A stretch of DNA of 63,847 bases, the filler included. It is 4 parts of 4 records of this genome, joined end to end, with 100 filler letters (N's around TTAATTAATTAA, not from the genome) between each part and the next. Parts side by side here need not be neighbours in the genome. Positions count along the whole stretch, not along the records: positions 1 to 29,622 come from DRR723986_3476; 3 more parts are not named here. One strand, written 5' to 3'. The position numbers and the translations under genes were made by a program. The notes under the pieces were generated by a model. The model did not search any database. It was not told the DNA's origin and saw only the letters and a program-made list of their open reading frames with translations. This document shows, piece after piece, positions 8,475-43,357 of this stretch. How positions within the stretch are numbered: the first letter of the stretch is position 1; every line of letters begins with the position of its first letter.

Positions 8475-8486
8475 TATTATATAAGT
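8475..8486. promoter_or_regulatory. Putative GntR operator (TATTATATAAGT, variant of TCTTATATAAGA)
   Basis: Two mismatches to the palindrome also found at 13877, 17992 and 18048; lies upstream of the GntR gene. Confidence 0.55.
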
Positions 8487-8574
8487 ATCAAAATACGGTC
8501 ATCGTGCCGATAAACATCAAGATAGGGGCTGCTAAATTTCCATACTTCCAGGATTTGAGCAGATTAGAGGGAAC

Positions 8575-9309
8575 GTGAGCAAGAACAGCCATTTGTCGCC
8601 ACAGCCTTTATACAAGCGTGCAGAAGTCGAAATGACAAATCGCATCGCCACTGGCACCTGGTCGCCAGGCGAAGTGCTGCCAAACGAGTTTGTGCTCGCT
8701 GAAGAATTTGGAGTAAGCCAGGGCACCATCAGAAAAGCCCTCGTTGCAATGGAAAAACGTGGGCTCCTGGCGCGAAGCCCGGGACGTGGAACTATTGTTT
8801 CCAGAACCACGCAGGAAGAGGCCCTTTATTCGTTTTTCCGGCTAAGGAACGAAAACGGGGATTTGGTGATCCCTCATCCCGTCAAGGAGACTGTAAAACT
8901 CAGAGCGTCCACCAAGCGGGAAAGAAAATACCTTGGTGAAGACTGCAAGAAGGTGATGCAGCTCTCTCGGGTCAGAGAGAATGAGCATCGGCCCTTTGCA
9001 CTGGAGGAGATGAGTTTTGATGCCTCCGTCTGCAGTGGCCTTCCGGACGATCTTCCCTTACCGCCCTCACTCTACCCCTATTTGCACGAACGGTTTGGAA
9101 TAGCCGTCATGCATGTCGACGAGTCGATTTCGGCAACGGTGGCGGACGAGGGAGCTGCAAGCACGCTCGCAGTCGAAGTTGGAATGCCGCTTCTGAAAGT
9201 CGTGCGAGTTGCCTACGACCTCGCCGATCGGGTGGTGGAGTTGAGAGAGAGCCTCTACAGAACAGATTTTGCGACCTATCAGATAACGCTTTCGAGATCC
9301 GAAGGTTGA
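8575..9309 (+). CDS. GntR-family (HutC/UTRA subfamily) transcriptional regulator
   Basis: wHTH LPNEFVLAEEFGVSQGTIRKAL..GRGT plus C-terminal UTRA-like domain (SLYPYLHERFGI, VELRES). Confidence 0.92.
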   Translation: MSKNSHLSPQPLYKRAEVEMTNRIATGTWSPGEVLPNEFVLAEEFGVSQGTIRKALVAMEKRGLLARSPGRGTIVSRTTQEEALYSFFRLRNENGDLVIPHPVKETVKLRASTKRERKYLGEDCKKVMQLSRVRENEHRPFALEEMSFDASVCSGLPDDLPLPPSLYPYLHERFGIAVMHVDESISATVADEGAASTLAVEVGMPLLKVVRVAYDLADRVVELRESLYRTDFATYQITLSRSEG

Positions 9310-9381
9310 TTTGCGGAAAATAAGCTCTGTTTTACAATGTTGTAAGCCGTTTTCCCCGGGTCTTGATGATCTCGAGCCACC

Positions 9382-10404
9382 TTATGAAAGCTTGAGCCAG
9401 ATTATCGCAAAGCAGGCAATAAATCCGGTTTCCAGAACAATCAGAGCAACCGACTGTGGCGGGATTTCCCTGAATTTCCGCAGCTCTGTCTTGACCCCCA
9501 CCGCTGCAATTGCTGTCAACATCGCCCATTTGGACAGGAATACTGCAGCGCTCTGAACTGCGGCCGGCAACAGGCCAAACGAATTGGCTATCACCAGCAA
9601 CAGGAAAGCGAGCACGAAACCGGGGATAAGGGGCGGTCTCTTTGCCTGGCCATCTGACGTTTCATGTGCGACGCGCAGCGCCAGTGTGAGCAGAAGAACG
9701 AATGGCGCAAGCATGGACACTCGGATCAACTTCACCGTTGTTGCGGTTTCTCCTGTCGCATCCGAAACACCGAACCCCGCCCCGACGACCTGGGCCACGT
9801 CGTGGATGGTTGCGCCAAGAAATATGCCGGATTGCATTTCATCGAAATTCAGGACGGAGGCGAGCAGGGGATAGCCGATCATGGCCAATGTGCTCAGAAG
9901 GGTAACACTGAAGACAGTGAAGCCGAGGTTCCGCTCCGAAAACTCATTCTTTGGCAGAACCGCTGCAATTGCCATTGCCGCAGAAGCGCCGCAGATCGAC
10001 ACCGCGCCGGCAGTCAAGATCGCAAGTCTCCAGCCGCGGCCCAAAAGACGCGAAGCGGCATAGCCAAACACAAGGGTCGCCAGCAATCCTGAGACAACCA
10101 GCAGAACGACCGGCCAGCCAAGGTCGACGAAAGCGTCAAACCCGATGCGTGCTCCGAGAAGTGCAACGGCAATTCTCAGGATCACCTTGGCTGAAAATCC
10201 GACACCGGCTGCGGCCCGGGACGGTTCCTCCTGAACGAAGTTCATCGTCATCCCGAGCAACAGCGCCATCAACATGGCCGGCGAGCCGTAGTGTTCTGAC
10301 AGGAATTGCGCCGCAAGTGCGATCATGGCGCAGATCAACACGCCCGGAGCCAGGCTTTGGACGCGCGTAATGGTTGCTCGAGAAAACGATGCTTCGGTTT
10401 GCAT
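9382..10404 (-). CDS. YeiH/UPF0324 putative sulfite/sulfate exporter
   Basis: SICGASAA, GATIHDVAQVVGAG and VKLIRV motifs; about 10 TMs; last gene of the suyAB operon. Confidence 0.88.
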   Translation of the reverse strand: MQTEASFSRATITRVQSLAPGVLICAMIALAAQFLSEHYGSPAMLMALLLGMTMNFVQEEPSRAAAGVGFSAKVILRIAVALLGARIGFDAFVDLGWPVVLLVVSGLLATLVFGYAASRLLGRGWRLAILTAGAVSICGASAAMAIAAVLPKNEFSERNLGFTVFSVTLLSTLAMIGYPLLASVLNFDEMQSGIFLGATIHDVAQVVGAGFGVSDATGETATTVKLIRVSMLAPFVLLLTLALRVAHETSDGQAKRPPLIPGFVLAFLLLVIANSFGLLPAAVQSAAVFLSKWAMLTAIAAVGVKTELRKFREIPPQSVALIVLETGFIACFAIIWLKLS

Positions 10405-10422
10405 GGAATCGTCTTGGCCGGC

Positions 10423-11430
10423 TTATTTTGCAACAGGGGTGAGGTCTTCGATCTCACGCAGCAAGTGGTCCGGAATTTCGATACCCTGGACCGATGCAAT
10501 CCGGCGGGCCTCGGTCTTTCCGGAGCCCGGAAGCCGTGTCCCTTCTTGCGAGAGGATCTCTGACAGAAGAGTCTCCAGACGAGAGGCATATCCGCTTCCC
10601 GAAATGTCCGGCCGGATGGCGATTATGGTCTGACCCACGCCCGGAGGGGCGCCGTCGACATCAAAGAAGGAACTGGCTTCAAAGGCGTGGTTCGCTCCAA
10701 TGAGGCTGGCAGACAGTATCTCGACCATCAAGGCAAGGGCTGCGCCCTTTGCGTCCCCTAGCGGTATCATCGTACCTTTCAGGGCTTCGTCAGGATCGGT
10801 TGTCGGATTGCCATCCCGGTTCAAGGCCCACCCTTCAGGGATGGTCTTGCCAGCCTTCGACGCCGCCATCACCTTGCCACGGGCAACTTTTGACAAGGAC
10901 AGGTCGATGACCAGCGGGACACTGCCTTCGCGTGACGTGGCAAAGGCTATGGGATTGGTTCCGAAAACCGGCCGCGAACCTCCCCAGGGCGCCATGGCTC
11001 CGGGCGAATTGGCAACCATCAGGGCGACAAACCCGCGTTCCGCCAACCGCTCGACGTGCACACCGAGCTGACCGCAGTGGTGCGACCGGCGGATACCGGC
11101 GATGGCGATACCCGTCTTGGTCAGCATTTCAGTCAAACCATCAATGGCCGCGTCGATCGCCGGAAAGGCAAATCCATTCCCGGCATCGACAATGAGGCTG
11201 CCGGTAAATGGCCGTGCGACCTGCGGGACCGCATGGCCGTCGACCTTGCCGGACTTCGCCTGCGCCGCATAGGCGGCAACACGCGAAAAGCCGTGCCCCT
11301 TTTGACCGTCGACCTCTGCCGCAACAAGCGCCTTGGCGACAGACGCAGCGTTCGCCGGAGAGACATTGCTGGCAACGAGAGCATCCTGGATTAACGCTTC
11401 AGCCGCCGCGATGCTAAGCAGTTTGGACAT
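10423..11430 (-). CDS. comC: Ldh_2-family oxidoreductase, probable (R)-3-sulfolactate dehydrogenase
   Basis: GHG, SHHCG, GTNPIAF, DLSLS..ARGK and KG motifs; adjacent to slcC and suyAB. Confidence 0.8.
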   Translation of the reverse strand: MSKLLSIAAAEALIQDALVASNVSPANAASVAKALVAAEVDGQKGHGFSRVAAYAAQAKSGKVDGHAVPQVARPFTGSLIVDAGNGFAFPAIDAAIDGLTEMLTKTGIAIAGIRRSHHCGQLGVHVERLAERGFVALMVANSPGAMAPWGGSRPVFGTNPIAFATSREGSVPLVIDLSLSKVARGKVMAASKAGKTIPEGWALNRDGNPTTDPDEALKGTMIPLGDAKGAALALMVEILSASLIGANHAFEASSFFDVDGAPPGVGQTIIAIRPDISGSGYASRLETLLSEILSQEGTRLPGSGKTEARRIASVQGIEIPDHLLREIEDLTPVAK

Positions 11431-11431
11431 T

Positions 11432-12361
11432 CTAGTAATCCTTCAATGCGCGCCGGACATTCTCAACCGTCAGGAAACTGACACGCGTGTTGCCTTCGTC
11501 AGTGACCCCTGCAATGTGCGGGGTGAGAACAAGGTTGGGACATTGGTCAAAAAGGAGCCCGGCTTCGGCCGTGAGCGGTTCGGTTTCGAAAACGTCAAGC
11601 GCGGCCCCGCCGAGCTTGCCGGCCTTGAGCGCGCCGACCAGGGCAGCCTCATCCACGATCCCGCCGCGGGCTGTGTTTATCAATACCGCGCCATTCTTCA
11701 TCTTGCTGATTGCAACGGCATCCAGCATTCCCCGCGTCGTGTCCGTCAACGGCACGTGAAGGCTCAGCACATCGGATTGGCGGATGAGGTCGTCGATTTC
11801 CATTCGCTGGACGTTGTTCCAGGCCGGGTGGTCCGCGGGCAGGAAGGGATCATGGGCGATCACCTGCATGCCAAGGGCTTGCGCGCGGGATGCCACTGCC
11901 CGGGCAATGTCGCCAAAGCCCACCAAACCCATTATGCGGCCTGCAACTTCTCCACCGCGTCCCAGTTCGGACCGTGGCCAGGCACCCTTGATCATCTCCT
12001 GGTTGGAGCTGTAGCTGCGACGAACCAAATTCATTGTGGCACCGATCACATACTCGGCGACCGAGAGTGTATTGGCTCCCGTAGCCGGCAGAACGGCAAT
12101 GTTGCGAGCCTTGCAGGCTGCGAGATCGATGTTGTCCAGTCCAACACCGAGACGTCCCACGGCCTGAAGTCTCTGGGCTGCGTTCAGCATCTCCTGATCT
12201 ACCTGGGTGCGGTTTCGCACAATGACCGCATTGGCTTGCGAGACCGTGGCAAGCATCTTGCCACGGTCGTCAACAAGCGACGGATCATAGGTGACGGCGA
12301 AGTCGCCCCCGAATGTCTCGAGAGCGGCTTCATCCATAAATTCCGTAACCACGATGCGCAT
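11432..12361 (-). CDS. slcC: D-2-hydroxyacid dehydrogenase, probable (S)-3-sulfolactate dehydrogenase
   Basis: EFMDEAA N-terminus, IVRNRTQV, GRLGVGLDNID, PATGANTLSVAEY, INTARG, TPHIAG; context next to comC and suyAB. Confidence 0.82.
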   Translation of the reverse strand: MRIVVTEFMDEAALETFGGDFAVTYDPSLVDDRGKMLATVSQANAVIVRNRTQVDQEMLNAAQRLQAVGRLGVGLDNIDLAACKARNIAVLPATGANTLSVAEYVIGATMNLVRRSYSSNQEMIKGAWPRSELGRGGEVAGRIMGLVGFGDIARAVASRAQALGMQVIAHDPFLPADHPAWNNVQRMEIDDLIRQSDVLSLHVPLTDTTRGMLDAVAISKMKNGAVLINTARGGIVDEAALVGALKAGKLGGAALDVFETEPLTAEAGLLFDQCPNLVLTPHIAGVTDEGNTRVSFLTVENVRRALKDY

Positions 12362-12364
12362 GTG

Positions 12365-13546
12365 TCAGGCCGATCGATACAGCTTGGTCATCGAGAATTC
12401 CCGATGTCCGAGTGCTTCGGAAGCCGTGTTCCGGCCGTTCGCTGTGCGGACGATCATTTCGATCAAGGCATCGCCAGCCTGGTCGATCGTCATTTCGCGG
12501 TTCAGCACCCCGGTCACATCGACATCGATGTGTTCGGACATGGTCCGCAAGGTTCTCGGGTTGCCCGAAATTTTCACGACCGGAATAATCGAGTTGCCGA
12601 TGACGTTGCCCTGACCCGTCGGGAAGGTGTGAATGACGTATCCTGCGGCAGCCATCAGCGTCACGCATTCCGCAGCCGCCGAGGAGGTGTCCATGAAGTA
12701 GAGTCCCGGGCCCTTTTCCGGGGCTTCGGCGGGGCCCATCGCATCGATGTAGGTCGATGTCCGGCCGATTTTCTCCAGATTGCCGAGAGCTTTTTCCTCA
12801 ATCGTGGTCAGGCCGCCGAGGATATTGCCCTTGGTCGGCTGACTGTCCGACAGGTCTGACGTCTTGAAGGGCTCGATAACCTCGTCCTGATAGGCCTGGA
12901 AGATCTTCATGAACTTCTCGCCAGCTTCCGGGGTGGCCGCGCGCTTGACGCAGATATGTTCCGCACCGGTGATCTCTGAGGTTTCACCAAAGCAGCCGTA
13001 TATTCCTTCCGGAAGCAGCTTGTCGTACATGTTGCCGACCGTGGGGCAGGATGACAGACCCGTGGTGGTGTCGCTTTCCCCGCATTTGGTCGAAATCCAC
13101 AAATCGCTGATCGGGCACTCTTCCTTCTGCAGTTCCGTTGCCCATTGAACGAATTCCTTGGCCTTCCAGCTCGCCTGCCGGATGGTCTCGAAATCACCTT
13201 TCTGTTCGATGGAAATTCCGAACACCGGTTTGCCGGTCTTGGCAATGCCGTCGACAACGATGCTCGTCCATTCAGGTTCGATCCCGATCACGACCACAGC
13301 CGCAACATTGGGATTGGCGCCGGTGCCGATGATCGTTCTGAAGTGAAGGTCGAGGTCTTCCCCGAATTGGAGGCGTCCATAGGCATGGGGGATGGCCATG
13401 GTGCCCTTGACGTTATTCGCAACAGCTTCGCACGCTGCATTCGAAATATCGTCGACAGGCAGGATCACAACGTGGTTTCGAACGCCGACACGGCCATTTT
13501 CGCGGCGCCAGGCGTTTACGGTCATCTTGGAAAAATCTTGCGCCAT
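12365..13546 (-). CDS. suyB: (2R)-sulfolactate sulfo-lyase beta subunit (UxaA family)
   Basis: [54 protein letters not shown] and HTFPTGQGN motifs. Confidence 0.9.
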
Positions 13547-13548
13547 GG

Positions 13549-13836
13549 TTACCACCTTTTGGTCTTGCAGTTGTGAACGTGAACGTGGTCGCCGATGGCG
13601 ACATCAGAGATCATTCTGCCGATATCCTCGCCGTATTTGATCACCGTATCGTCGGCCTTCATCGCCTTGAGCGCGACCTTGTGGCCGATCGGAATGTCGG
13701 TATTGGCCTTCAGCTTGAAATCGGAATTGTCTGCGGTGACGACGCAGAGCATTTCCGTGCCGGCTATCAGACCTTCCACGACGACGACACCCACGTTGTC
13801 TTCGTGATCGTGGACTAAGAGTTGCGGTTTGCTCAT
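13549..13836 (-). CDS. suyA: (2R)-sulfolactate sulfo-lyase alpha subunit (SAF domain)
   Basis: [27 protein letters not shown] and [12 protein letters not shown] motifs. Confidence 0.9.
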
Positions 13837-13870
13837 GGGTACCTCCAGTGTGAGTTCTTGAGTATGATTT

Positions 13871-13888
13871 CTTATATTTTATATAAGA
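13871..13888. promoter_or_regulatory. Putative GntR operator upstream of suyA (CTTATATTTTATATAAGA)
   Basis: TTTTATATAAGA (13877-13888) is one mismatch from TCTTATATAAGA; an extra half-site is adjacent. Confidence 0.7.
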
Positions 13889-13929
13889 ATAAAAACGCAG
13901 AATGCCGCTTTTGAGGCTTTTCTGTCCGG

Positions 13930-15042
13930 TTACGGCAACAACGTCGCCCGGAATGGTTGACTGGAACCGGTCAACCCGCGGAGCGCGTCATAGACATCCA
14001 GGGTGGACACCGGATGTTGCATGTTGTGGATCCGGCTTCCCTGACGCGTTGCAAAGACTGCAATCTGCCGCAGTTCTTCGTGGGAAAGGTCAATCAGTCC
14101 GACATCGCGCAGGCGTCGCGGCATTCCGACTTCCTCGTAGAAACTCAGAATGTCGGCCATGAAGGCGTTGTCCCGGCCTTCCAGGGCGAACTGTGCCAGA
14201 AGGCCAACGGCGACCTCTTCTCCATGGAGAATGCCTTTTGCCTGCGGCAGCACGGAAAGAGCCATGCCAATCGCGTGTGCACCGGCAACACCACAGCCCT
14301 CGAAGCCGAGCCCGCTGAGCAATATGTTGGCTTCAACCACCTTTTCCACGGCAGGACTGGTCTGCGTGTTCAAGACGTCACGAACCGCTGCCCCACCATG
14401 TTTTCGCAACACGGTGTAGCAGTGGTCGGCGAGGCAGATTGCCGTCTCGGTGGGCTGGGCGTCGAAGAAGTTGTTCTTGCCCGCAAGCCGCACCTGGTCA
14501 GCTTCGAACTTCGTGGCCAAGGCATCCGCAATTCCGGCACGGAAAAACCGGACCGGCGCTTTCGCAACAACTTCCGTGTCCACAAAGATGGCATCGGGAT
14601 TTGTCGTCAGGAATTTTGGACCGAGGAACTTTCCGTCCTCGTCGTACATGATCGCCAATCGGCTGGTGGGGGAATCGTTCGAAGCGATTGTCGGAGCCAC
14701 GATGACGGGAACACCCGTGTCGATCTTGACGGCCTTGGCAGCATCAATCGCTTTGCCACCGCCAAGACCAATCACGCAATCAAGGTCTTTCGAACGTACT
14801 CGTTCCACCGCAGATGCCACGGCTTGAGGTGAACACTCACCAGCAAAATCGTCGAATGTGACATCAAGGTTGGCGGCTTGCATTGAGCGGCTGATCGTGT
14901 CGCCGTAGTTCGTTTTAACGAACTGGTCGCAGACGATGAGCGGCTTCTGTCCGAAAGGCCGGACGAGTTCGCCGAGATGCTCAAGCAAACCGCTTCCTTG
15001 TTTATAGATCGATGGGAAACCAATCGCGAACATGTACTTCAT
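13930..15042 (-). CDS. Glycerol dehydrogenase (GldA)-family metal-dependent polyol dehydrogenase
   Basis: PSIYKQG, GLGGGKAIDAAK, PTIASNDSPTS, AGIADALATKFE, LSGLGFE..G..AH and HGEEVA motifs. Confidence 0.85.
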   Translation of the reverse strand: MKYMFAIGFPSIYKQGSGLLEHLGELVRPFGQKPLIVCDQFVKTNYGDTISRSMQAANLDVTFDDFAGECSPQAVASAVERVRSKDLDCVIGLGGGKAIDAAKAVKIDTGVPVIVAPTIASNDSPTSRLAIMYDEDGKFLGPKFLTTNPDAIFVDTEVVAKAPVRFFRAGIADALATKFEADQVRLAGKNNFFDAQPTETAICLADHCYTVLRKHGGAAVRDVLNTQTSPAVEKVVEANILLSGLGFEGCGVAGAHAIGMALSVLPQAKGILHGEEVAVGLLAQFALEGRDNAFMADILSFYEEVGMPRRLRDVGLIDLSHEELRQIAVFATRQGSRIHNMQHPVSTLDVYDALRGLTGSSQPFRATLLP

Positions 15043-15051
15043 CCATTTTCA

Positions 15052-15075
15052 GGGACGGGACGAAACGCCCGTCCC
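15052..15075 (-). terminator. GC-rich stem-loop between dctP and the dehydrogenase gene
   Basis: GGGACGGG-N8-CCCGTCCC inverted repeat. Confidence 0.45.
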
Positions 15076-15091
15076 ACTTGCGCTTTGGTTG

Positions 15092-16117
15092 TTACTGGCC
15101 AGCCGCGGCTTTTGCTTCTTCTACGGCCTCGAGCATAACGTTCAGCCATTTGTCGCCATATTTCTCGACGTACCAGTCCTGCATCGCCTGGCGAGCGCCA
15201 AGGAAGGTCTCCCGGTCCTCTTCGGTTGGCGTGTAAATGGTGCCGCCCGCAGCTTCGAAGTCGGCATTCGCACTGGCTTCCACTTCCGCGTTGAATTTCG
15301 TCTGTTCTGCCGCGGCAAACTTGAAGCCGTCCAGAACGACGGTTTTCATCTCGTCGGGAAGGCCGCTCAGCCAGCTGTCGCTCACGAAGTAGTAGCCAAA
15401 CAGGAATGTATGCCGGTCGAGAATGACATTCGTGACCACTTCGTTGAACTTGTTGGACATGATGTCAGGGGTACCGTTCTTGGTGCCATCAACGACGCCG
15501 GTGGACAGTGCGGTATAGAGTTCGCCCCAGGCCACAGGGGTGGCAGAAGCGCCCAGGCTGCTGACGAATTGCTGCTGCAGCGGGGAGCTGATCGTGCGGA
15601 TCTTCATCCCCTTGAGATCGTTTGCGTTATGCACCGGCTTGGTCGTGAAAAAGGAACGCCAGCGACCACCGTCGCTCACGGCGACAAGGCGAGTGTTCGG
15701 CAGCTTTTCCATCACCGCGTCGGTCATGGCATCGCTAAAGGAACCTTCCATGAATTTGTAGGCGACTTCGTCATTCGGCAAGATGTACTGCAGGTCGACA
15801 ACGGCCAGTTCAGGCACGAACGGCGTGACCCCTCCAATGGACACGTGCGCGACTTCAAGCGCTCCTGCGTTCACCTGCTCCATCACTTCCTGGTAGTTGC
15901 CAAGCTGGTTGCCAGGATAGATCTCGACAGCAATACGGCCGTTCGAATTCTCTTCGATATAGGACTTAAGCGACGTGGATCCGACGTAGTCGTCGTTTGC
16001 CATGGTGGCGGGCCCGGCATGGGCGATTTTCATCGTGAAATCCTGGGCCTGGGCGGCGCTAGCCAATCCAAAACCCAACGCAATTGCAGTCACTGCGCTT
16101 TTCAAACCGATCTTCAT
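15092..16117 (-). CDS. dctP: TRAP transporter substrate-binding protein
   Basis: Signal peptide, YPGNQLG, DLKGMKIR and ELYTALSTGVVDG motifs. Confidence 0.93.
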   Translation of the reverse strand: MKIGLKSAVTAIALGFGLASAAQAQDFTMKIAHAGPATMANDDYVGSTSLKSYIEENSNGRIAVEIYPGNQLGNYQEVMEQVNAGALEVAHVSIGGVTPFVPELAVVDLQYILPNDEVAYKFMEGSFSDAMTDAVMEKLPNTRLVAVSDGGRWRSFFTTKPVHNANDLKGMKIRTISSPLQQQFVSSLGASATPVAWGELYTALSTGVVDGTKNGTPDIMSNKFNEVVTNVILDRHTFLFGYYFVSDSWLSGLPDEMKTVVLDGFKFAAAEQTKFNAEVEASANADFEAAGGTIYTPTEEDRETFLGARQAMQDWYVEKYGDKWLNVMLEAVEEAKAAAGQ

Positions 16118-16144
16118 AGTACTCCTCCATTTGAAGATTAGTTG

Positions 16145-17434
16145 TTAGACGGGATAGCCAAGTAGTCTTGGCAGGGCGAGAGAGATGTCTGGGATCAGGG
16201 TGATGGCCAGGATCACCAGGATGTGCACCAGATAAAAAGGCAGCATTGCCCGGACGATTTCCCCCACCCGGAGCTTTGAAACCGCCGCGGATGCGAACAA
16301 GACAAGTCCAAAGGGCGGAGTTGCCAGGCCGATGGTCAGGTTCAGACACATGATGACCGCGAAATGGATGGGGCTGATATCCATGCCCAGCATTGTCGGG
16401 CCCAAGACCGGCCCGACGATCAGAATGGCCGGCCCGGCATCAAGGAACATGCCGACGACAAACAGCACCAGATTGATCAGCAAGAGGAAGAGGATGGGGT
16501 TTTCCGTGATGTCCAGAACCAGGCGCGCAAGGGACTGCGGGATACCGGCGATATTGAGCGCCCAACCGAACAGGGAGGCGGATCCTATCATCAGAAGAAC
16601 AATCGATGAGGATTTCGCCGCTCTCACGAACAGGCCGGGGATTGCACCGGGGGTCAGTGTCCCGCTGACGAGACTGAGAACCAGCGAATAGGCGACCGCC
16701 AGCACGGCTGCTTCCGTCGGCGAGACGATCCCAAGAAGGATACCGCCGAGAATGATGACCGGCGTCATCAACGGGAAGAAGCCTTGAACAATTCCGGTGA
16801 CGGCTTCGTTCCTTGAAGGAAGACCCTCACGTTTGGGGAAGTTGTGCTTCCGCGCGATGAGAGCGGTCATTGCCATAAGGCTGACCCCCATCAGAAGTCC
16901 GGGAACGAGTCCGGCGGCAAAAAGAGCTCCGACCGACACATTCATGATGTATGCGTAGACGATCATGATGATGCTCGGAGGAATGATCGGCCCGATTATC
17001 GAGGACGCAGCGGTGACGGCTGTTGCGAATTTGCGGGTGTAGCCATCCTTCTCCATCGCGGGAATGAGCATCGATCCTAATGCGGTGGTGTCTGCAACGG
17101 CGGAACCGCTCAATCCTGCAAACAGAATGCTCGACAGGATGTTCACATGGGCCAGGCCGCCTCTCAGGTGGCCGACGAGAAGCTTCGAGAACGTCACGAG
17201 CCGGCGGGTGATCTCGCCTGCGTTCATGATTTCCCCGGCCAGAATGAACAGGGGAATTGCAAGCAACGGGAACTGGTTGATACCCGCAAAAAACCGCTGC
17301 AAACCTATCTGCGCCATCACCTGCTTGCCATCGATCACAAACCCGGCAAGCGGTCCGAAGGCGAGGGCGAAGACTATCGGCATGCCCAGCAACGCCGCGA
17401 CGATCGTCAAGCTAACAAACAGTGGCATGATCAT
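16145..17434 (-). CDS. dctM: TRAP transporter large permease
   Basis: FPLLAIPLFILAG, SGSAVAD, IIPPSI, PTEAA and TPPFG motifs. Confidence 0.95.
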   Translation of the reverse strand: MIMPLFVSLTIVAALLGMPIVFALAFGPLAGFVIDGKQVMAQIGLQRFFAGINQFPLLAIPLFILAGEIMNAGEITRRLVTFSKLLVGHLRGGLAHVNILSSILFAGLSGSAVADTTALGSMLIPAMEKDGYTRKFATAVTAASSIIGPIIPPSIIMIVYAYIMNVSVGALFAAGLVPGLLMGVSLMAMTALIARKHNFPKREGLPSRNEAVTGIVQGFFPLMTPVIILGGILLGIVSPTEAAVLAVAYSLVLSLVSGTLTPGAIPGLFVRAAKSSSIVLLMIGSASLFGWALNIAGIPQSLARLVLDITENPILFLLLINLVLFVVGMFLDAGPAILIVGPVLGPTMLGMDISPIHFAVIMCLNLTIGLATPPFGLVLFASAAVSKLRVGEIVRAMLPFYLVHILVILAITLIPDISLALPRLLGYPV

Positions 17435-17940
17435 TCACCCGTCGGCTGGTCTAGGTGAGGAAAAATCGGCCGCAACGCCTGTTCCACGCACAAGGGAACG
17501 ATGAGCAGAAACCCGACAGGAACGGCGAGATAAACATAGCCTTGCTTTATCCAGTCGAGGCTGGGTACGATGCGAGCCATCCCCTGCTTCACAAAGCCGA
17601 AGCTCACCCACACGACCATCACAGCGATAAAACAAACCGCCACATAAACGGCCGTGTTGACCATCTTGGCGAGCGGAGAAGGTAATACGGAGAGCAGCCC
17701 CTCAACAGCGATGTGCCCTTGCCGCATCCCGACCACGAGCCCCAGCAAGGTCATCCAGACCAGCGAGATGAGACACGCGTCATCGCTCCAGGAAAGCGGA
17801 TTGTTCAGGACGTATCTGCACAAGACCGAGACGGTCATGATGACAACGATCACCCCGAGAAGGGACGCGATCGCCGCCGTGCAGACACGCATCAACACCG
17901 AGTTGAGAGCGACGAGCGCCCTGTAAACGTTTGAAGCCAT
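17431..17940 (-). CDS. dctQ: TRAP transporter small permease
   Basis: Four TMs, RYVLNNPLSWSDD, HIAVE; ATGA overlap with dctM. Confidence 0.92.
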   Translation of the reverse strand: MASNVYRALVALNSVLMRVCTAAIASLLGVIVVIMTVSVLCRYVLNNPLSWSDDACLISLVWMTLLGLVVGMRQGHIAVEGLLSVLPSPLAKMVNTAVYVAVCFIAVMVVWVSFGFVKQGMARIVPSLDWIKQGYVYLAVPVGFLLIVPLCVEQALRPIFPHLDQPTGE

Positions 17941-17991
17941 TTCCTCCCCGCGCGCTATTACGCAAAGGCGTGTTTTTTATCGCCTTATGTA

Positions 17992-18003
17992 TCTTATATA
18001 AGA
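17992..18003. promoter_or_regulatory. Putative GntR operator TCTTATATAAGA
   Basis: Perfect 12-bp palindrome in the divergent dctQ/kinase promoter region. Confidence 0.75.
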
Positions 18004-18046
18004 AATAAATTGAATGAACGTCAAGTGTTGAATCTTCAATTTTTAT

Positions 18047-18060
18047 ATCTTATATAAGAT
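18047..18060. promoter_or_regulatory. Putative GntR operator ATCTTATATAAGAT
   Basis: Perfect 14-bp palindrome; second copy in the same divergent promoter. Confidence 0.75.
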
Positions 18061-18112
18061 TGAAATTGCAGTCGTTAAGACCCGCGTTGATAAGGGGTCG
18101 TCGGGAGGTGCG

Positions 18113-19021
18113 GTGGAAATGAAATCACCCGTAGTCGTGTGTGCTGGCATAGTAACGGTCGACGCGGTCTACCTGATAAAGGGCGCTCTTGAGGAGGGGC
18201 TGAAGCACAGGGCTTCGCATTCCTATCTGACCACTGGCGGATGCGCTTTGAACGCCGCACATGCGATTGCCTCTCTCGGCGGTAAGGCGTTTCTTTCGGG
18301 CGTGGTGGGCGATGACATCTTCGGAAAGTTTGTCCGGGATGAACTCAGGAATCTCCGGATCGATGGCCGGTATCTGACCGAGCGGGCAGGAGAGGCGACA
18401 GCGCATTCGGCCGTGCTGGTCGATGTGAACGGCGAACGCACCATCATCAATCATCGCTCTGAGAACCTGTACGAAATCGGCGCCGCCCGGGTCGATTTGC
18501 AAGAGGCTTCCGGCGTCCTGGTCGACACACGCTGGCCAAAAGGGGCTGTGGATCTGGTCGAAGCGGCACGCTCGGTTGGAATTCCCTGTGTTGTCGATGC
18601 GGAGGCTCCGGTGAACCACGCCGCAGAGGCCTTGCGCGGGGCAACTCATGTTGCGTTTTCCGAGCAGGGGCTCGCCGATTTCGCCGGCGGAGCAGACGCG
18701 GATGCGCTTTCCCGTGCCGCCGCGAGCCTCAGGGCATGGGTCTGCGTCACTCGAGGCTCATCCTCCGTCCTTTGTCACGACGGACAAACGCTGTCCGAGG
18801 TGCCCGCGTTCAAGGTGAAAGCCGTTGACACGCTGGGAGCCGGAGACGTTTGGCACGGCGCCTTCACGCTCGCGCTTTGTGAAGGCTATGGCGAATTGGA
18901 GGCTATAAGACGCGCCAACGCTGCGGCCGCGTTGAAGACCACACGAATTGGTGGCGGCTCTCCGCTGCCCTGTAAAAACGAAGTCGAGAATTTTCTAAGG
19001 GAGACTGTTTCATGCCACTGA
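18113..19021 (+). CDS. PfkB-family sugar kinase, sulfofructose kinase (YihV)-like
   Basis: GG.ALNAA, VGDD, GERTIINH, VLVDTRW, HVAFSEQGL and VDTLGAGDVWHGAF motifs resemble E. coli YihV. Confidence 0.85.
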   Translation: MEMKSPVVVCAGIVTVDAVYLIKGALEEGLKHRASHSYLTTGGCALNAAHAIASLGGKAFLSGVVGDDIFGKFVRDELRNLRIDGRYLTERAGEATAHSAVLVDVNGERTIINHRSENLYEIGAARVDLQEASGVLVDTRWPKGAVDLVEAARSVGIPCVVDAEAPVNHAAEALRGATHVAFSEQGLADFAGGADADALSRAAASLRAWVCVTRGSSSVLCHDGQTLSEVPAFKVKAVDTLGAGDVWHGAFTLALCEGYGELEAIRRANAAAALKTTRIGGGSPLPCKNEVENFLRETVSCH

Positions 19022-20052
19022 GCGCTGGAAAATTGTGGGGCATGCGCCGAATGGCCGACGCCAACGGGCTGTTCAAGATGACCGCCGTGGACCAAAGGCC
19101 ACCAATTAAGGCTGCGATTGCCAAACACTACGGAACGGACACGGCTCCGTATGACGATGTGGCTGAATTCAAGCGGTTGCTGATTGAAACACTGCAAGAC
19201 AAATCGACCGCGCTTCTTCTCGATCCTCATTTCGCAATTCCCAGAGGTCTCCCGACCCTGTCGCCAACCAAGGGACTGATTGTGACCCTGGAGGACTCGA
19301 TTTTCGAGGACACGGGCAAAGGCCGCCGGTCCTCGCCGATCGATGATTGGTCCGTCGGCAAAATCAAACGTATGGGCGGTGACGCGGTGAAGGTTCTTGC
19401 CTGGTACCGCCCGGATGCCGATCCGGAGATAAATCGCCACCAGCAGGACTTCACGAAACGGATCGGTGAAGCCTGTTCAAAATACGATATCCCGTTCCTT
19501 TTCGAACTCCTGGTATTCCCGCTCGACTCCGATGTTCACCAGACCAAGGACTACGTCGAGATGCAGGGCAAGCGATCCGATGATGTCCTGAAATCCGTTG
19601 AGGAATTCGCGAAACCGGACTACGGCGTTGATGTCTTCAAGCTCGAAAGCCCTGTAAGCGCGGCTGACGTTCCAGGCGTCGGTGAGGGTGACTGGCAAGC
19701 GGTTCAGCAGATATTCGACGAAATGGGCAGGCTTGCCGGAAGGCCCTGGGTGATGCTTTCTGCCGGCGCCAGCAAACCGGCTTTCCGCAAGATCCTGAAC
19801 CACGCCTATAAAGCCGGCGCTTCCGGCTATCTGGCCGGACGGGCAATCTGGCTGGACGCCTTCGGTCACTTCCCCGACTGGGGCAAGATTCGGGAAGAAC
19901 TCTCGGGCGACGCAGGCACCTACATGGACGATTTGAACGCCCTGACGGATGCAGAAGCAACACCCTGGCACAAGCACGCTGTTTTTGACGGGGAGGGCGA
20001 CGCGTTTTCTCCGGCAGATGCTTCCTTCCGGCACACATACGGAGACATCTGA
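19012..20052 (+). CDS. Class I aldolase, LacD/YihT family (tagatose-bisphosphate / sulfofructose-phosphate aldolase)
   Basis: AVDQR, DAVKVL, DVFKLE (Schiff-base Lys), WVMLSAG and GASGYLAGRAIW motifs. Confidence 0.88.
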   Translation: MPLSAGKLWGMRRMADANGLFKMTAVDQRPPIKAAIAKHYGTDTAPYDDVAEFKRLLIETLQDKSTALLLDPHFAIPRGLPTLSPTKGLIVTLEDSIFEDTGKGRRSSPIDDWSVGKIKRMGGDAVKVLAWYRPDADPEINRHQQDFTKRIGEACSKYDIPFLFELLVFPLDSDVHQTKDYVEMQGKRSDDVLKSVEEFAKPDYGVDVFKLESPVSAADVPGVGEGDWQAVQQIFDEMGRLAGRPWVMLSAGASKPAFRKILNHAYKAGASGYLAGRAIWLDAFGHFPDWGKIREELSGDAGTYMDDLNALTDAEATPWHKHAVFDGEGDAFSPADASFRHTYGDI

Positions 20053-20053
20053 T

Positions 20054-21502
20054 ATGGCCAGCTATGCGAAGTACCTCATCAACGCCAATCTGATCGGCGG
20101 AGATTGGCTCTCTCCAGCTGAGGATCAATCGATCCTCGTCACAAACCCGGCCACCGGGGAAGAACTCGGCCGCGTGCCGGCCTTCGGTGCGGCCGAAACG
20201 ACTGCGGCAATCAATGCGGCGGCTGAAGCCTTTCCTGGATATTCCTCGCTGGATCTGGCCAAGCGCGTGAAGTTGCTGCGTGATCTGCATGACGCCTTGA
20301 TGGACAATCAGGAGCCTTTGGCGGCGTTGCTGACGGCGGAGCAGGGAAAACCCCTGGCAGAATCGCGCGGGGAGATTGCCATCGGCGCGGCCTATATTCT
20401 GTGGTTCGCTGAGGAGGTTCGCCGCACCAAGGGCGAGGTCGTTCCTTCCCCCGTCAACGGGCGCCAGCTTCTGGTGACGCATCACCCTGTCGGTGTCGTT
20501 GCAGCCATCACGCCCTGGAATTTTCCGTCCTCAATGCTTGCTCGCAAACTGGGTCCGGCACTCGCCGCAGGATGCACTACGGTCGTGAAACCCGCATCGC
20601 TGACCCCCTATTCCGCGCTTGCCTGGGGTAAACTTGCCGAAGAGGTCGGTTACCCGGCGGGCGTCATCAACATTGTCACCGGGTCTGCCCGGCAGATCGG
20701 CGGTGCAATCATGACCGACCCGCGTGTGCGCAAGGTCACTTTCACCGGTTCGACCGAAGTCGGAAAAGAACTGATCCGGCAATCCGCCGATACCGTGAAG
20801 AAAGTGTCGATGGAACTTGGCGGCAACGCTCCGTTTATCGTTTTTGATGACGCTGATCTCGACAAGGCCGTTCAAGGGGCGATGATCGCAAAGTACCGCA
20901 ACTCGGGGCAAACCTGTGTATGCGCCAATCGTTTCTACGTTCAGTCGGGCATACATGATGCATTTGTCAAACGGCTGACCGAGGCAACCGAGGCCCTGAA
21001 GGTTGGCGCAGGAGCCGAGGCGGGCGTTGAACAAGGCCCGCTGGTGGATCAGTCTGCATTCGACAAGGTCAAGGAGCTGATTGACGACGCCGTTTCAAAC
21101 GGTGCGACCGTCGAGACGGGCGGGAAGGGACATGCCCTTGGTGGAACATGGTTCGAACCGACGGTCCTCTCCGGCATCAAGACGAGGATGAGCATCGCCC
21201 GTGAGGAGATCTTCGGGCCGGTATCTGCAATTTTCCGCTTCGATACGGAAGAAGAGGTGGTTGCAGCTGCCAACGACACGGACTTCGGCCTCGCCGCTTA
21301 TGTCTATACCCGGGACCTCGGCCGCACTTTCCGCATGAGCGAAAAGCTGCAGTATGGGCTGATTGGCGTCAATGAAGGCTTGATTACGACGGTCGAAGCA
21401 CCTTTCGGCGGATTGAAGTCCAGCGGCCTTAGCAAGGAAGGTGGCAGCCAGGGCATCCTGGATTACTTCGACACGAAATACACCTGCGTTGGTGGAATTT
21501 GA
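20054..21502 (+). CDS. SSADH-family NAD(P)-dependent aldehyde dehydrogenase, probable 3-sulfolactaldehyde dehydrogenase
   Basis: ITPWNFP, FTGSTEVG, MELGGNAP, NSGQTCVC and EEIFGP motifs. The SLA dehydrogenase role is inferred from context. Confidence 0.85.
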   Translation: MASYAKYLINANLIGGDWLSPAEDQSILVTNPATGEELGRVPAFGAAETTAAINAAAEAFPGYSSLDLAKRVKLLRDLHDALMDNQEPLAALLTAEQGKPLAESRGEIAIGAAYILWFAEEVRRTKGEVVPSPVNGRQLLVTHHPVGVVAAITPWNFPSSMLARKLGPALAAGCTTVVKPASLTPYSALAWGKLAEEVGYPAGVINIVTGSARQIGGAIMTDPRVRKVTFTGSTEVGKELIRQSADTVKKVSMELGGNAPFIVFDDADLDKAVQGAMIAKYRNSGQTCVCANRFYVQSGIHDAFVKRLTEATEALKVGAGAEAGVEQGPLVDQSAFDKVKELIDDAVSNGATVETGGKGHALGGTWFEPTVLSGIKTRMSIAREEIFGPVSAIFRFDTEEEVVAAANDTDFGLAAYVYTRDLGRTFRMSEKLQYGLIGVNEGLITTVEAPFGGLKSSGLSKEGGSQGILDYFDTKYTCVGGI

Positions 21503-21560
21503 GCCGAAGGGCGTTGAGACCAATTGATGGTTAGTGTGCATTTTTTGAATGTGAATACCT

Positions 21561-21583
21561 TCCCCTGGCCGACTGCCAGGGGA
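21561..21583 (+). terminator. Stem-loop downstream of the aldehyde dehydrogenase
   Basis: TCCCCTGGC-N5-GCCAGGGGA inverted repeat. Confidence 0.5.
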
Positions 21584-21756
21584 TTGATGTTGAGACCTTC
21601 TCTATAGTTTCGATCTTAGCCAGTTCACACTTCAAGCGGAGAGGAGGCGTCTCTCAGACAATGTGTCTGCACCAGCTCGCCGAACCACTTCCGGTGCAGC
21701 CGCGGTTGATGAAACGCCAGCTTAGCTTGCGGGACAGCCACAGGCCTCCTCGATCA

Positions 21757-21917
21757 TCCACAAGCCGCTCCTTTTCCTCTTGCGACCATCGCCGGCGACG
21801 CTCCACCGACGTGATCACCTCAATATGCTGCTTGGTCATAGGACTATTCCTAGTGTTACCACTAGGACTGGCAGTCTTCAGTCTTTGCCGGCAAGGCGGT
21901 CTTCACCGGAGGGAGAC
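21757..21917 (-). mobile_element. IS66-family remnant (terminal region plus 5' end of tnpA)
   Basis: MTKQHIEVITSVERRRRWSQEEKERLV is a typical IS66 TnpA N-terminus; upstream GTCTCCCTCCGGTGAAGACCGCC resembles an IS66 end. The ORF then diverges. Confidence 0.65.
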
Positions 21918-22003
21918 ATCTTGGCCAGGATCTGGTCCGTCCCAACTCAAAAGCAGAGGCACCTTCAAAGTCGGAAAACAAGAGAGTTTTTCAACGAAAT
22001 AGG
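21918..22003 (+). mobile_element. Possible IS1182/IS5-type right-end remnant
   Basis: LARIWSVP-like transposase C-terminal tail followed by GAGTTTTTCAACGAAATAGG, resembling the ends of this IS group (recalled, not searched). Confidence 0.4.
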
Positions 22004-22239
22004 CGGAAAGCGGGCATTCGCTGCGGTCAATGCAAATGACCGGAATGGGCCGACAGGAGACTATCGATTAAGAGGCCAAAATAGTGGGATAGCTGCGGTT
22101 CGCACGGTATCTGATTAACTGCGGCTTCCAGATTCATAGCGCCTGTCCTCGAAAGATTGGGATGGAGGCGCATTTCTGGGTGGCGGCATTGCTGCCTTTG
22201 TCCTGCTCAGCGAATGGGTGCCATAGTCCTCCCGCCGCA

Positions 22240-22530
22240 GACTGATCGAGCCATGCTAACAGGCTTGCTCTGACGTCAGCAGATATCTCGAACTGGGGCG
22301 GCCCGTCTTCTTTCGAACCACCACTGTGCTTATACGGATCGCAGCTCCACCGACCGTCGTTCCGATCTTCAACGTTACTAGATCGAAACCTCGCAGTTTG
22401 CTGTCGATTGCAAGTTCGCACAGCACCCGGTTGCGCGTCCGTCCTTCCCGATCGAGGAAAAAGCGGATCGCCCAGATCTGGCGTTGCCTGAGAGGCTTCT
22501 TAACTCCAACGATTCGACCAGCATTCCATA
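22240..22530 (-). pseudogene. Small tyrosine recombinase, frameshifted and truncated
   Basis: Stitched minus-strand frames read WNAGRIVGVKKPLRQRQIWAIRFFLDREGR..ELAIDSKLRGFDLV..KKTGRP / QFEISADVRASLLAWL. The catalytic HxxR/Y half is absent. Confidence 0.75.
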
Positions 22531-23057
22531 CTCCTTAGGCCAATATTGGCCGTCCGGAAGATATGCGAGCATGGTGAGCCAATGGGATCGACTGCAGGCT
22601 CTAGGGTTTTATTTTCAAAACCAGCGATGGTTTGAGCTTGAAATGTCTTAGCCACTTCAGAAAGAGCCCTGACATTTATTTATTCCCGTCAGGCGAAATG
22701 TACCCGTCTTTGGGTGGCGCCAATATGGTTGATCGGATTCTCGATATTCGTATACCCAACAAAAATTTGCACTGCTCGAATGCTGCGTCTGCTATGAAAA
22801 TGACCGACGATTTATCCGATGCAACGACCACTTGCCATATTCTTCTTGTGTCGACCTTATTGCGGAATCACGCCCACCAGCCAGTCTTGAAAACTGTCCT
22901 GTACGCATCGGCGTGGAGCAACATGGTCCTTGATCGAGCCTTCAGAAGGTTCCATCCAGGGGAGACGTCTGTCGAGTGCGTCCGCTACAGATTCCGTTTT
23001 GACAGGAACGCCCACCTGTTTTGGTCGTCAATGTTGACACGCTGATTACCGAAGAAG

Positions 23058-40136: not shown

Positions 40137-40391
40137 ATGATAAACGGAAACCAATGCATTGCAGCACGGGCGCTGGCACGGCTCAGCGTGAGGCAGCTTG
40201 CGATTGAGTCTGGGGTGTCTGCGAGCACAATCATCAGGCTGGAGGCGGGCAAGCGCATTGATCCTGAAAACGCCGGCGCGATCTCCCGTGCTCTGCATGA
40301 CCACGGTATCCAAGTACTGACCCCGGGCGATGGCGCTGAGGGCGATGGCGCGGCTGTTCGCCCAGATGGATGGAGGCCGAAACGTGGCTAG
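40137..40391 (+). CDS. XRE-family HTH protein
   Basis: QCIAARAL..SVRQLAIESGVSASTIIRLEAG. Confidence 0.8.
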   Translation: MINGNQCIAARALARLSVRQLAIESGVSASTIIRLEAGKRIDPENAGAISRALHDHGIQVLTPGDGAEGDGAAVRPDGWRPKRG

Positions 40392-43152: not shown

Positions 43153-43210
43153 CCACCACCTACCACCCACCCACCAACCCCAACAAAAGAGCTACGTGAA
43201 GGACACACAA

Positions 43211-43357
43211 ATGCTTGATTTTATTATCACATCCACAACAATCACCCTGGCAATTGCCTACATCGCAATCCTTGCGGAGATGGCCTTTGACACGCTGCAG
43301 CAGCGACATGATCTCGAACGCGCTGCCGAGCGCAAGCTGTTGGGGCTCGGGGGCTGA
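43211..43357 (+). CDS. Small membrane protein (48 aa), hypothetical
   Basis: GAAGGA RBS; MLDFIITSTTITLAIAYIAILAEM hydrophobic N-terminus; below the ORF-track cutoff. Confidence 0.5.
   Translation: MLDFIITSTTITLAIAYIAILAEMAFDTLQQRHDLERAAERKLLGLGG

Follow-up and report, generated by a model that had tools for sequence, protein, structure and literature searches.

The window analysed here is a stretch of DNA of 63,847 nt from a marine bacterium, and all coordinates below are positions along its whole length. At 8.5-21.5 kb it carries a cluster of 13 genes, identified by profile searches against Pfam and NCBIfam and arranged in three transcription units and a regulator; the cluster is discussed here as a possible regulon for the breakdown of a six-carbon (C6) sulfonate that would enter through a tripartite ATP-independent periplasmic (TRAP) transporter and a dehydrogenase of the GldA family. 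All 13 genes listed by a first-pass annotation were found in place and as described there, and a codon log-odds gene caller trained on related loci returned the same 13 genes, with three starts differing slightly. The features of the cluster are as follows.

8475-8486: operator-like site upstream of gntR, with 2 mismatches to TCTTATATAAGA
8575-9309, plus strand: gntR, GntR/HutC-type regulator (PF00392 + PF07702, the GntR helix-turn-helix and the UTRA effector domain)
9382-10404, minus strand: yeiH, YeiH/PSE-family membrane protein (PF03601, 212 bits; TIGR00698, 130 bits, under cut-off)
10423-11430, minus strand: comC, ComC-type (R)-sulfolactate dehydrogenase of the Ldh_2 family (PF02615, 314 bits)
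11432-12361, minus strand: slcC, SlcC-type (S)-sulfolactate dehydrogenase of the D-2-hydroxyacid dehydrogenase family (PF02826 + PF00389)
12365-13555, minus strand: suyB, (2R)-sulfolactate sulfo-lyase large subunit (PF20629 + PF04295)
13549-13836, minus strand: suyA, small SAF-like subunit, an open reading frame (ORF) of 95 aa overlapping suyB
13877-13888: operator site with 1 mismatch, in the 93-bp gap between the GldA-like gene and suyA
13930-15042, minus strand: GldA-family (group III, metal-dependent) dehydrogenase (NF006941, 404 bits)
15092-16117, minus strand: dctP (PF03480)
16145-17434, minus strand: dctM (PF06808)
17431-17940, minus strand: dctQ (PF04290)
17992-18059: two exact copies of TCTTATATAAGA, 56 bp apart (starts 17992 and 18048), in the divergent region between dctQ and the kinase gene
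18113-19021, plus strand: YihV-family PfkB kinase (PF00294, 155 bits; best solved relative 7ag6)
19012-20052, plus strand: class I aldolase of the LacD/DUF2090 type (NF009498, 339 bits)
20054-21502, plus strand: GabD-like aldehyde dehydrogenase, resembling succinate-semialdehyde dehydrogenase (SSADH) (TIGR01780, 639 bits)

Unit 1 (minus strand, 13836 down to 9382) consists of suyA-suyB-slcC-comC-yeiH, and unit 2 (minus strand, 17940 down to 13930) of dctQ-dctM-dctP followed by the GldA-like gene. Unit 3 (plus strand, 18113-21502) is divergent from the TRAP unit and comprises the genes for the PfkB kinase, the class I aldolase and the aldehyde dehydrogenase. For comparison, one genome per species was scanned, in which 438 loci encoded relatives and the best 80 were kept (L003-L082; aldolase 57-97% identity); a metagenome scan gave 42 loci. 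The nearest public locus, that of Roseibium sp. FZY0029 (L003), has an identical gene order and proteins 96-99% identical to those of the window. No DNA match to the cluster was obtained in the plasmid collection searched, and the nearest plasmid-borne kinases, 55% and 42% identical, lie in unrelated contexts.

The palindrome TCTTATATAAGA occurs at four sites of the cluster, which cover all three promoter regions. Across the window, five matches with at most 2 mismatches were found against 0.48 expected, and none of 100 shuffles reached five; the fifth match, at 25327, lies outside the cluster. The site upstream of suyA is also present in L003, and the paired copies in the divergent region are kept in L003-L006, with a spacing of 56 bp in L003-L005 and 51 bp in L006. 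In five loci that carry the isomerase SqvD (L007, L008, L009, L042 and L062), one copy lies directly upstream of the kinase gene. The shared operator proposed by the first-pass annotation is thus real, since the counts exceed those of the shuffles and all three units are marked. Because all of them bear one operator, the three units very probably form one regulon. As far as sequence can tell, the operator common to both units favours co-induction of the kinase operon with suyAB, on which the first-pass annotation had made its interpretation depend. Orthologues of the GntR regulator flank L004-L006 at 59-66% identity, and SuyAB-bearing sulfoquinovose loci at 31-56% identity.

Among solved structures, the kinase is closest to YihV, the sulfofructose kinase of E. 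coli (7ag6, E 4e-44); the top ribokinase is found at 7e-22. It has been reported for YihV that K27, R138 and N109 form the sulfonate-binding triad, that D13 and S95 bind the C3 and C4 hydroxyls, and that D244 is the catalytic base (Sharma et al. 2021, PMC8006165). Residues D17, K31, S99, N113, R140 and D245 of the window kinase align with YihV D13, K27, S95, N109, R138 and D244 in HMMER and MAFFT alignments, and the K, N and R that had at first been picked out by eye were confirmed as K31, N113 and R140 by the HMMER alignment to 7ag6. Residue conservation was followed in an alignment of 82 sequences, namely those of 78 genome loci and 2 metagenome loci, the window and E. coli YihV. The equivalents of K27 and R138 are invariant (82/82), as is the catalytic aspartate (D244 equivalent, 82/82), and the GXGD motif of the PfkB fold is present; the N109 equivalent is retained in 57 of the 82, with A, G or S in the other 25. 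The kinase phylogeny proposed earlier as a check was run as a quick maximum-likelihood tree with no ribokinase outgroup, in which E. coli YihV nests within the family on a long branch. Seven kinases of loci with the GldA-like gene (GldA-type loci) and three of SqvD-type loci (L007, L008 and L062) make up a 10-row clade with a (starred) support of 100, and the kinases do not split according to entry module, as would be expected if their substrate were the same. By homology, the window kinase is a member of the YihV sulfofructose-kinase family with a complete K-N-R sulfonate triad. One locus, L061, was set aside, as its kinase sits on a long branch beside altronate-dehydratase-like genes and is off the sulfonate pattern.

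Orthology of the aldolase to YihT was not borne out. NCBIfam places the protein in PRK12858, 'tagatose 1,6-diphosphate aldolase' (NF009498, above cut-off). Among solved structures it is closest to 8tnf (E 1e-95), a 'DUF2090 domain-containing protein' that is uncharacterised; LacD, at about 1e-40, also scores far better than YihT (3e-17). Because identity to E. coli YihT is 28%, the aldolase is judged by homology to be of a different subfamily of the DeoC/LacD fold and no YihT orthologue. The Schiff-base lysine K210 and R277 align with YihT K193 and R253 and are invariant in 7/7 aligned sequences; the two residues are probably common to LacD enzymes as well, and do not discriminate between aldolase types. 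The function of the aldolase is better judged from gene context than from residues. The kinase gene lies directly upstream of it in 78/80 related loci, and the SqvD gene lies alongside in 71/80. The aldehyde dehydrogenase falls slightly under the TIGR01780 cut-off (639 against 646 bits) and is nearer to E. coli GabD (3jz4, 580 bits), its best solved relative, than to 8c54 (531 bits), which we take to be the Rhizobium sulfolactaldehyde dehydrogenase. Orthologues at 57-72% identity occur in 19 SqvD-type loci, and 22/80 loci overall encode one. The enzyme is a candidate sulfolactaldehyde dehydrogenase, which sequence alone cannot tell from a true succinate-semialdehyde dehydrogenase.

For desulfonation, both subunits of a two-subunit SuyAB are encoded. 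SuyA weakly matches the N-terminus of galactarate dehydratase and is conserved together with suyB in 17 related loci, and SuyB (396 aa, PF04295/PF20629) is a UxaA-type large subunit, 86-98% identical to its 120 best relatives, many of which are annotated '(2R)-sulfolactate sulfo-lyase subunit beta' under JGI, NCBI or UniRef names. SuyB is encoded in all of the three nearest cluster-bearing genomes (G001-G003), and adjoins the cluster in Roseibium only. Beside suyAB, a PF00389/PF02826 dehydrogenase gene adjoins a PF02615 dehydrogenase gene, the families given for SlcC and ComC, respectively, in Table S2 of PMC12421959, so that by family the two are an SlcC/ComC pair. The best NCBIfam model for ComC, NF040650 (L-sulfolactate dehydrogenase), gives 181 bits against a cut-off of 500, and SlcC-like genes are present in 37/80 related loci. 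The suyAB unit ends with yeiH in the window and likewise in L003, L042, L062 and L103, and YeiH is a candidate exporter of sulfite (or sulfate).

These assignments outline a lower pathway from the ketose to pyruvate and sulfite that is well supported by homology. The YihV-family kinase would phosphorylate a 6-deoxy-6-sulfo-ketohexose at C1, and the LacD/DUF2090-type class I aldolase would cleave the sulfo-ketohexose 1-phosphate to dihydroxyacetone phosphate (DHAP) and sulfolactaldehyde. The GabD-like dehydrogenase would then oxidise sulfolactaldehyde to (S)-sulfolactate, SlcC and ComC would invert this through sulfopyruvate, SuyAB would release pyruvate and sulfite, and YeiH would probably export the sulfite. 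A single-organism pathway joining sulfoglycolysis of the Embden-Meyerhof-Parnas type (sulfo-EMP) to sulfo-lyase had been proposed in the first-pass annotation. That proposal held for the chain of kinase, aldolase, SSADH-like enzyme, SlcC/ComC and SuyAB from the ketose onwards, and failed for the entry into it, as the entry enzymes SqvD, YihS, sulfoquinovosidase and mutarotase are absent from the cluster.

The related genome loci make this absence stand out. A FucI-like isomerase of the SqvD family is carried by 71 of the 80, SqvD being the sulfoquinovose isomerase of sulfo-EMP2 and of the transaldolase (sulfo-TAL) and transketolase (sulfo-TK) pathways (2022 review, PMC9594981). A sulfoquinovosidase is also present in 68 of these 71, either a Gfo/Idh/MocA protein assigned to glycoside hydrolase family GH188 or a GH31 enzyme; the former matches the SqgA structures 8QC3 and 8QC2 at about E 1e-110. 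An aldose epimerase occurs in 38/80 loci. SqvD, YihS, sulfoquinovosidase and mutarotase were all searched for without a find in the window cluster and in L003-L006, and no YihS homologue was seen in any of the 122 loci examined; window-type loci also lack the MauG-like gene of the sulfoquinovose clusters. Across the 80 loci, the GldA-like gene and SqvD never occur together, 4 loci having the GldA-like gene only, 71 SqvD only and 5 neither (Fisher p = 8e-5, kinship uncorrected); three of the latter five are contigs ending at the aldolase. The genes suyA and/or suyB are found in 16/71 SqvD-type loci, most of them with slcC, comC and a GntR gene, and 8/80 loci carry a sulfopyruvate-decarboxylase-like thiamine pyrophosphate enzyme instead of suyA/suyB. 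In gene content, the combination of the EMP route and SuyAB in one organism is thus common in genomes of marine and soil Alphaproteobacteria.

In place of the sulfoquinovose entry enzymes, the window has a TRAP transporter followed by the GldA-like enzyme. Its DctP is 98% identical to that of L003 and 80-82% to those of L004-L006, but 32-41% to the DctP of SqvD-type loci, and no close solved relative of it was found. The GldA-like protein exceeds the cut-off of the glycerol dehydrogenase model NF006941 (336 bits), the metal-binding D173, H256 and H273 show no variation in the alignment, and its solved relatives at E <1e-20 are glycerol dehydrogenases only. It belongs to the GldA family, but its gene neighbourhood makes a part in glycerol catabolism doubtful. 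The gene lies directly downstream of dctP in 16/16 TRAP-bearing related loci (L003-L006 and 12 metagenome loci). The TRAP-linked GldA-like proteins form one group in a quick tree of 21 rows (Shimodaira-Hasegawa-like approximate likelihood ratio test, 86) and share K106, P142, A151, G249, R333 and R337, which are missing from E. coli GldA and from most TRAP-less homologues. This clade is rare: among 401 alphaproteobacterial genomes sampled, just one encodes a relative above 41% identity. Proteins that are 50-66% identical were seen in Paracoccus onchidii, Amaricoccus, Litorisediminicola, Hoeflea, Thalassospira and Oceanidesulfovibrio marinus, among them relatives at 59% in the last two. In L022, dctP is followed not by a GldA-like gene but by one for a short-chain dehydrogenase/reductase (SDR), and the locus encodes a separate YihU-like reductase besides (37% identity to the E. 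coli enzyme). A true glycerol dehydrogenase serving glycerol from sulfoquinovosyl glycerol, a route proposed for Faecalicatena, was rejected because sulfoquinovosidase was not found in the cluster, G002 or G003, and L119, in which a GldA homologue accompanies an ABC (ATP-binding cassette) transporter, was set aside as off the sulfonate pattern.

The metagenome contigs show the same order, dctQMP followed by the GldA-like gene, as a fixed module in 12 loci. In L104, L105 and L107, the module continues into or faces kinase and aldolase genes, and L107 adds an aldehyde dehydrogenase, GntR and TauE. In L109, L110, L112 and L126, it is divergent from a split transketolase and an RpiB-type (PF02502) isomerase, accompanied by an aldehyde dehydrogenase in L110, L112 and L126 and by an ADP-forming CoA ligase in L110 and L126; no SqvD was found in these four contigs. 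This set resembles in gene content the oxidative sulfo-TK variant in print, in which SqwGH and SqwI (PF02502) are joined by a CoA ligase and a sulfoacetaldehyde dehydrogenase. A Crp-type regulator gene was also noticed near the transketolase-type genes of these contigs. L138 has part of a transketolase at the contig end, and its GldA-like protein is identical to the one in L126. TauE is present in L114 and L116, the latter also with a class II aldolase and PfkB kinases, and L111 and L113 are cut off or without informative neighbours. L103 has GntR, GldA-like, suyAB, slcC, comC and yeiH genes in a row and begins with aldehyde-dehydrogenase fragments; no TRAP transporter or kinase is in view there. 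Taken together, 7 lineages link the module with kinase and aldolase genes, namely window/L003, L004, L005, L006, L104/L105, L107 and L103.

On this basis, we hold with about even confidence that the cluster is a GntR-controlled regulon for the complete breakdown of a C6 sulfonate, in which an imported sulfonated polyol would be oxidised to a sulfoketose. The TRAP transporter would import a sulfonated compound other than sulfoquinovose, for which 6-deoxy-6-sulfo-hexitol is the likeliest candidate, although this is a guess. The GldA-like enzyme would oxidise the sulfo-hexitol at C2, as glycerol dehydrogenase does with glycerol, and hand the sulfoketose to the kinase. GldA acts on a secondary alcohol that adjoins a primary one, and oxidation of 6-deoxy-6-sulfo-hexitol in this manner would yield sulfofructose. 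Sulfofructose is where both the EMP and the transketolase backbone begin, and most simply the module would supply this ketose out of a precursor that is imported. A dehydrogenase entry also fits two parallels among non-orthologous genes, the SDR of L022 and cluster 2 of Paracoccus wurundjeri described below. More tentatively, and with somewhat less than even confidence, a TRAP transporter with a GldA-type polyol dehydrogenase may be a second, dehydrogenase-based gateway of sulfoglycolysis. It would act on an unrecognised natural sulfonate, such as 6-deoxy-6-sulfo-glucitol or 6-deoxy-6-sulfo-mannitol, and feed both EMP and transketolase backbones, with an SDR or a medium-chain dehydrogenase/reductase (MDR) as possible substitutes elsewhere.

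Several points weigh against the polyol entry. Its weak point is that we know of no sulfo-alditol as a natural product; literature searches by sulfo-alditol names found none, and among the matches listed for sulfofructose with GldA and polyol nothing was relevant. The support of 86 for the GldA-like clade is below the star threshold and comes from a quick tree, and the clade-specificity of K106, R333 and R337 reflects positions in an alignment, not in the fold. The loci are interrelated and their counts overstate independence, the GldA-like proteins of L104 and L105, and those of L126 and L138, being identical. The transketolase-type loci resemble sulfo-TK by gene content alone. Furthermore, the glycolaldehyde reductase model NF053832 scores the GldA-like protein at 350 bits, and GldA-family enzymes also reduce alpha-hydroxy-aldehydes. 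In L004 and L104, no aldehyde dehydrogenase gene is seen next to that of the aldolase, which would agree with a reduction of sulfolactaldehyde. The enzyme could thus be an end-product reductase.

Carried through, these last points lead to a rival account, in which the GldA-like enzyme would be a sulfolactaldehyde reductase analogous to YihU or SqwF. It would make 2,3-dihydroxypropane-1-sulfonate (DHPS), either as a redox valve or as the chief outlet for the aldehyde, while the TRAP transporter would import the ketose itself (sulfofructose or a stereoisomer), so that no isomerase would be needed. It gains from the fact that SqwF, the sulfoacetaldehyde reductase of sulfo-TK, belongs to PF00465. 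However, it leaves unexplained why the GldA-like gene excludes SqvD, sulfoquinovosidase and mutarotase (0/80 co-occurrence) and why it keeps its fixed last place in the TRAP operon. The same basic residues are kept in both EMP and transketolase contexts, and the aldehyde of the transketolase-type loci would be sulfoacetaldehyde, which by our understanding of the chemistry has no alpha-hydroxyl for GldA-type metal chelation. A separate YihU-like reductase exists beside the TRAP-linked dehydrogenase of L022, the restriction of close solved relatives to glycerol dehydrogenases does not point to a reductase, and free sulfofructose is to our knowledge not an environmental nutrient. We consider this account unlikely. 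Somewhat less likely again are two adjacent systems under one roof, in which the TRAP transporter and the GldA-like enzyme would import DHPS and oxidise it to sulfolactaldehyde for the aldehyde dehydrogenase, SlcC/ComC and SuyAB, and the kinase and aldolase would serve another sugar. In favour of this, DHPS is a 1,2-diol that is plentiful in seawater, small 1,2-diols are substrates of GldA (the annotation of E. coli GldA reads propanediol/glycerol dehydrogenase), no HpsN is present in the window cluster, and L103 has its GldA-like gene immediately ahead of suyAB, with neither a TRAP nor a kinase gene in view. Against this, oxidation of the secondary alcohol by GldA would, as we understand the enzyme, not yield sulfolactaldehyde, and the kinase operon would be left without a source of substrate. 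The ties of the module to kinase and aldolase in 7 lineages and to transketolase-type sets that lack genes for processing sulfolactaldehyde or sulfolactate, together with the operator common to all units, also speak against separate systems.

An ordinary sulfo-EMP pathway on sulfoquinovose, as the first-pass annotation envisaged, with uptake by the TRAP transporter and isomerisation by an unlinked enzyme, would accord with the closeness of the kinase and aldolase to those of sulfoquinovose clusters and with the operator motif upstream of the kinase in the five SqvD-type loci named above. With the L009 protein as query, however, no SqvD orthologue was found in G001-G003, the sole match being one of 28% in G002; this absence holds for the queries used, and the genomes may be incomplete. 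PF07221 was matched in G001 only, inside a capsule-synthesis locus, and YihS homologues are missing from all 122 loci. The DctP is merely 32-41% identical to SqvD-type DctP, and G001 already has a separate cluster with GH188 and a sulfoquinovose-type TRAP transporter. This explanation is very unlikely. The least probable alternative, to which we give hardly any credence, is that kinase and aldolase act on a non-sulfonated sugar (tagatose-type, fructose-type or carboxylated) and that their adjacency to suyAB is due to chance. The NCBIfam name of the aldolase, 'tagatose 1,6-diphosphate aldolase', would agree with it, and K210 and R277 are expected in LacD enzymes too, but the complete YihV sulfonate triad, the orthologues in 71 SqvD loci (68 with a sulfoquinovosidase) and the operator in common with suyAB argue otherwise, and the adjacency recurs in Roseibium sp. 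FZY0029 and, partly, in contig L103.

Compared with known systems, the window resembles the sulfo-EMP pathway of E. coli (YihS, YihV, YihT and YihU) from the sulfoketose on, with a PfkB kinase bearing the K-N-R triad and a class I aldolase predicted to give DHAP and sulfolactaldehyde. It differs in having no YihS or SqvD, no sulfoquinovosidase and no mutarotase, in its LacD/DUF2090-type aldolase and TRAP uptake, and in that the sulfonate product would be desulfonated by the same cluster and not excreted. Oxidation to sulfolactate, as predicted for the window, is known from sulfo-EMP in Arthrobacter spp. (PMC8873060). With the alphaproteobacterial sulfoquinovose clusters the window shares the kinase (34-59%), the aldolase (57-87%), aldehyde dehydrogenase orthologues, GntR and the operator motif, whereas a GldA-like dehydrogenase replaces SqvD, SqgA and the mutarotase, the TRAP transporter is of a different type and the MauG-like gene is missing. 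Clusters with TRAP, kinase, aldolase, SqvD and SqgA genes were drawn as sulfo-EMP in Kaur et al. 2023, and Ma et al. 2025 cite an EMP variant of marine Roseobacter. The window-type GldA-like enzymes are of the same family and have the same metal ligands as the classical GldA of E. coli, Bacillus stearothermophilus and Thermotoga, and differ by the TRAP linkage in sulfonate-type clusters and, from E. coli GldA, by the clade residues K106/P142/A151/G249/R333/R337. Sulfo-TK has a gene content like that of contigs L109, L110, L112 and L126; the window itself has no transketolase genes.

The first-pass annotation did not recognise the coupling of sulfoglycolysis to SuyAB as a described arrangement, but it is already in print, and is present in the 16 SqvD-type loci mentioned above. 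'Extended' clusters of sulfo-TAL with SuyAB have been described in Thermotogae and Chloroflexi (2022 review, PMC9594981), and Paracoccus wurundjeri was reported to combine an Entner-Doudoroff-type pathway for sulfofucose with SlcC/ComC/SuyAB in tandem (mBio 2025, PMC12421959). In these systems, as predicted for the window, one organism cleaves a C6 sulfosugar, racemises the sulfolactate formed and desulfonates it. Cluster 2 of P. wurundjeri (Table S1, PMC12421959) has GntR, SuyA, SuyB, SlcC and ComC, as the window has, and further on an ABC transporter, SDR and MDR dehydrogenases, a PfkB kinase and a PF01791 aldolase; it encodes no isomerase. The proven route of P. wurundjeri is of the Entner-Doudoroff type with ABC uptake, whereas in the window the EMP-type part is the only cleavage route present; the kinase/aldolase part of cluster 2 was given no role by its authors. 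The proteomics in the same source record a 38-kDa 'Tagatose 1,6-diphosphate aldolase' raised by about 4.8 log2 on sulfofucose, while its text gives the cluster 2 PF01791 protein as not significantly raised; the two need not be the same protein. A FEMS review of 2026 still describes sulfoglycolysis and desulfonation as two-tiered across organisms and calls their co-inheritance rare. The new part of the window cluster is the entry step, that is, the module of TRAP transporter and GldA-type dehydrogenase that replaces the sulfoquinovose entry enzymes, the coupling to SuyAB being already known.

Sulfoquinovose and its C3 products carry large amounts of carbon and sulfur between algae and bacteria. 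If the polyol entry is true, a sulfonated polyol would form part of the marine sulfonate pool, and surveys keyed on sulfoquinovosidase or isomerase genes would miss such a substrate. The recurrent transporter-dehydrogenase module, with its DctP, its GldA-like enzyme and cultured strains that carry the cluster, among them Roseibium sp. FZY0029 and Paracoccus onchidii Z330, offers a handle for finding the sulfonated substrate.

Some further observations concern the related loci. A MauG/cytochrome-c-peroxidase-like di-haem gene lies beside the sulfoquinovose-type dctP in 44/80 of the loci L003-L082; it is found in EMP-type clusters and in a sulfoquinovose monooxygenase (sulfo-SMO) cluster of Roseibium, examples being L009:7138-8997, L031:7830-9122 and L093:18067-19824. 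That sulfo-SMO cluster (L093, G001:C3:638500-658499) belongs to the Roseibium genome G001 and encodes SqgA, GntR, a luciferase-like monooxygenase, an aldo-keto reductase and a flavin reductase, and also a sulfoquinovose-type TRAP transporter besides the MauG-like protein. From this gene content, the closest genome, G001, would handle sulfoquinovose via a separate sulfo-SMO cluster. In the uncultured alphaproteobacterium of L062, a sulfoquinovose-type TRAP transporter, kinase, aldolase, SqvD and SqgA are joined with yeiH, suyB and suyA, a Zn-dependent alcohol dehydrogenase, an SDR and an HpsN-like gene of the histidinol-dehydrogenase family, so that routes for sulfoquinovose and sulfolactate, and probably one for DHPS, lie next to each other. 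Transposase genes flank L006 and L062, which fits a patchy spread of the cluster.

Within the window, no gene was called across the 1.5 kb downstream of the aldehyde dehydrogenase (21503-23057), where a 61-aa ORF (21654-21839, minus strand) presumably resembles the start of an IS66-type accessory protein. Outside the cluster, the window holds no further sulfonate genes and consists of ordinary origin-proximal chromosome (parAB, gidAB and mnmE) and a prophage-like island. The latter, a stretch of low GC at 40330-55524, encodes a phage terminase large subunit (gpA), an AIPR abortive-infection-type protein, an RTX/DUF4214 protein and an integrase, and is probably a prophage remnant or a defence island.

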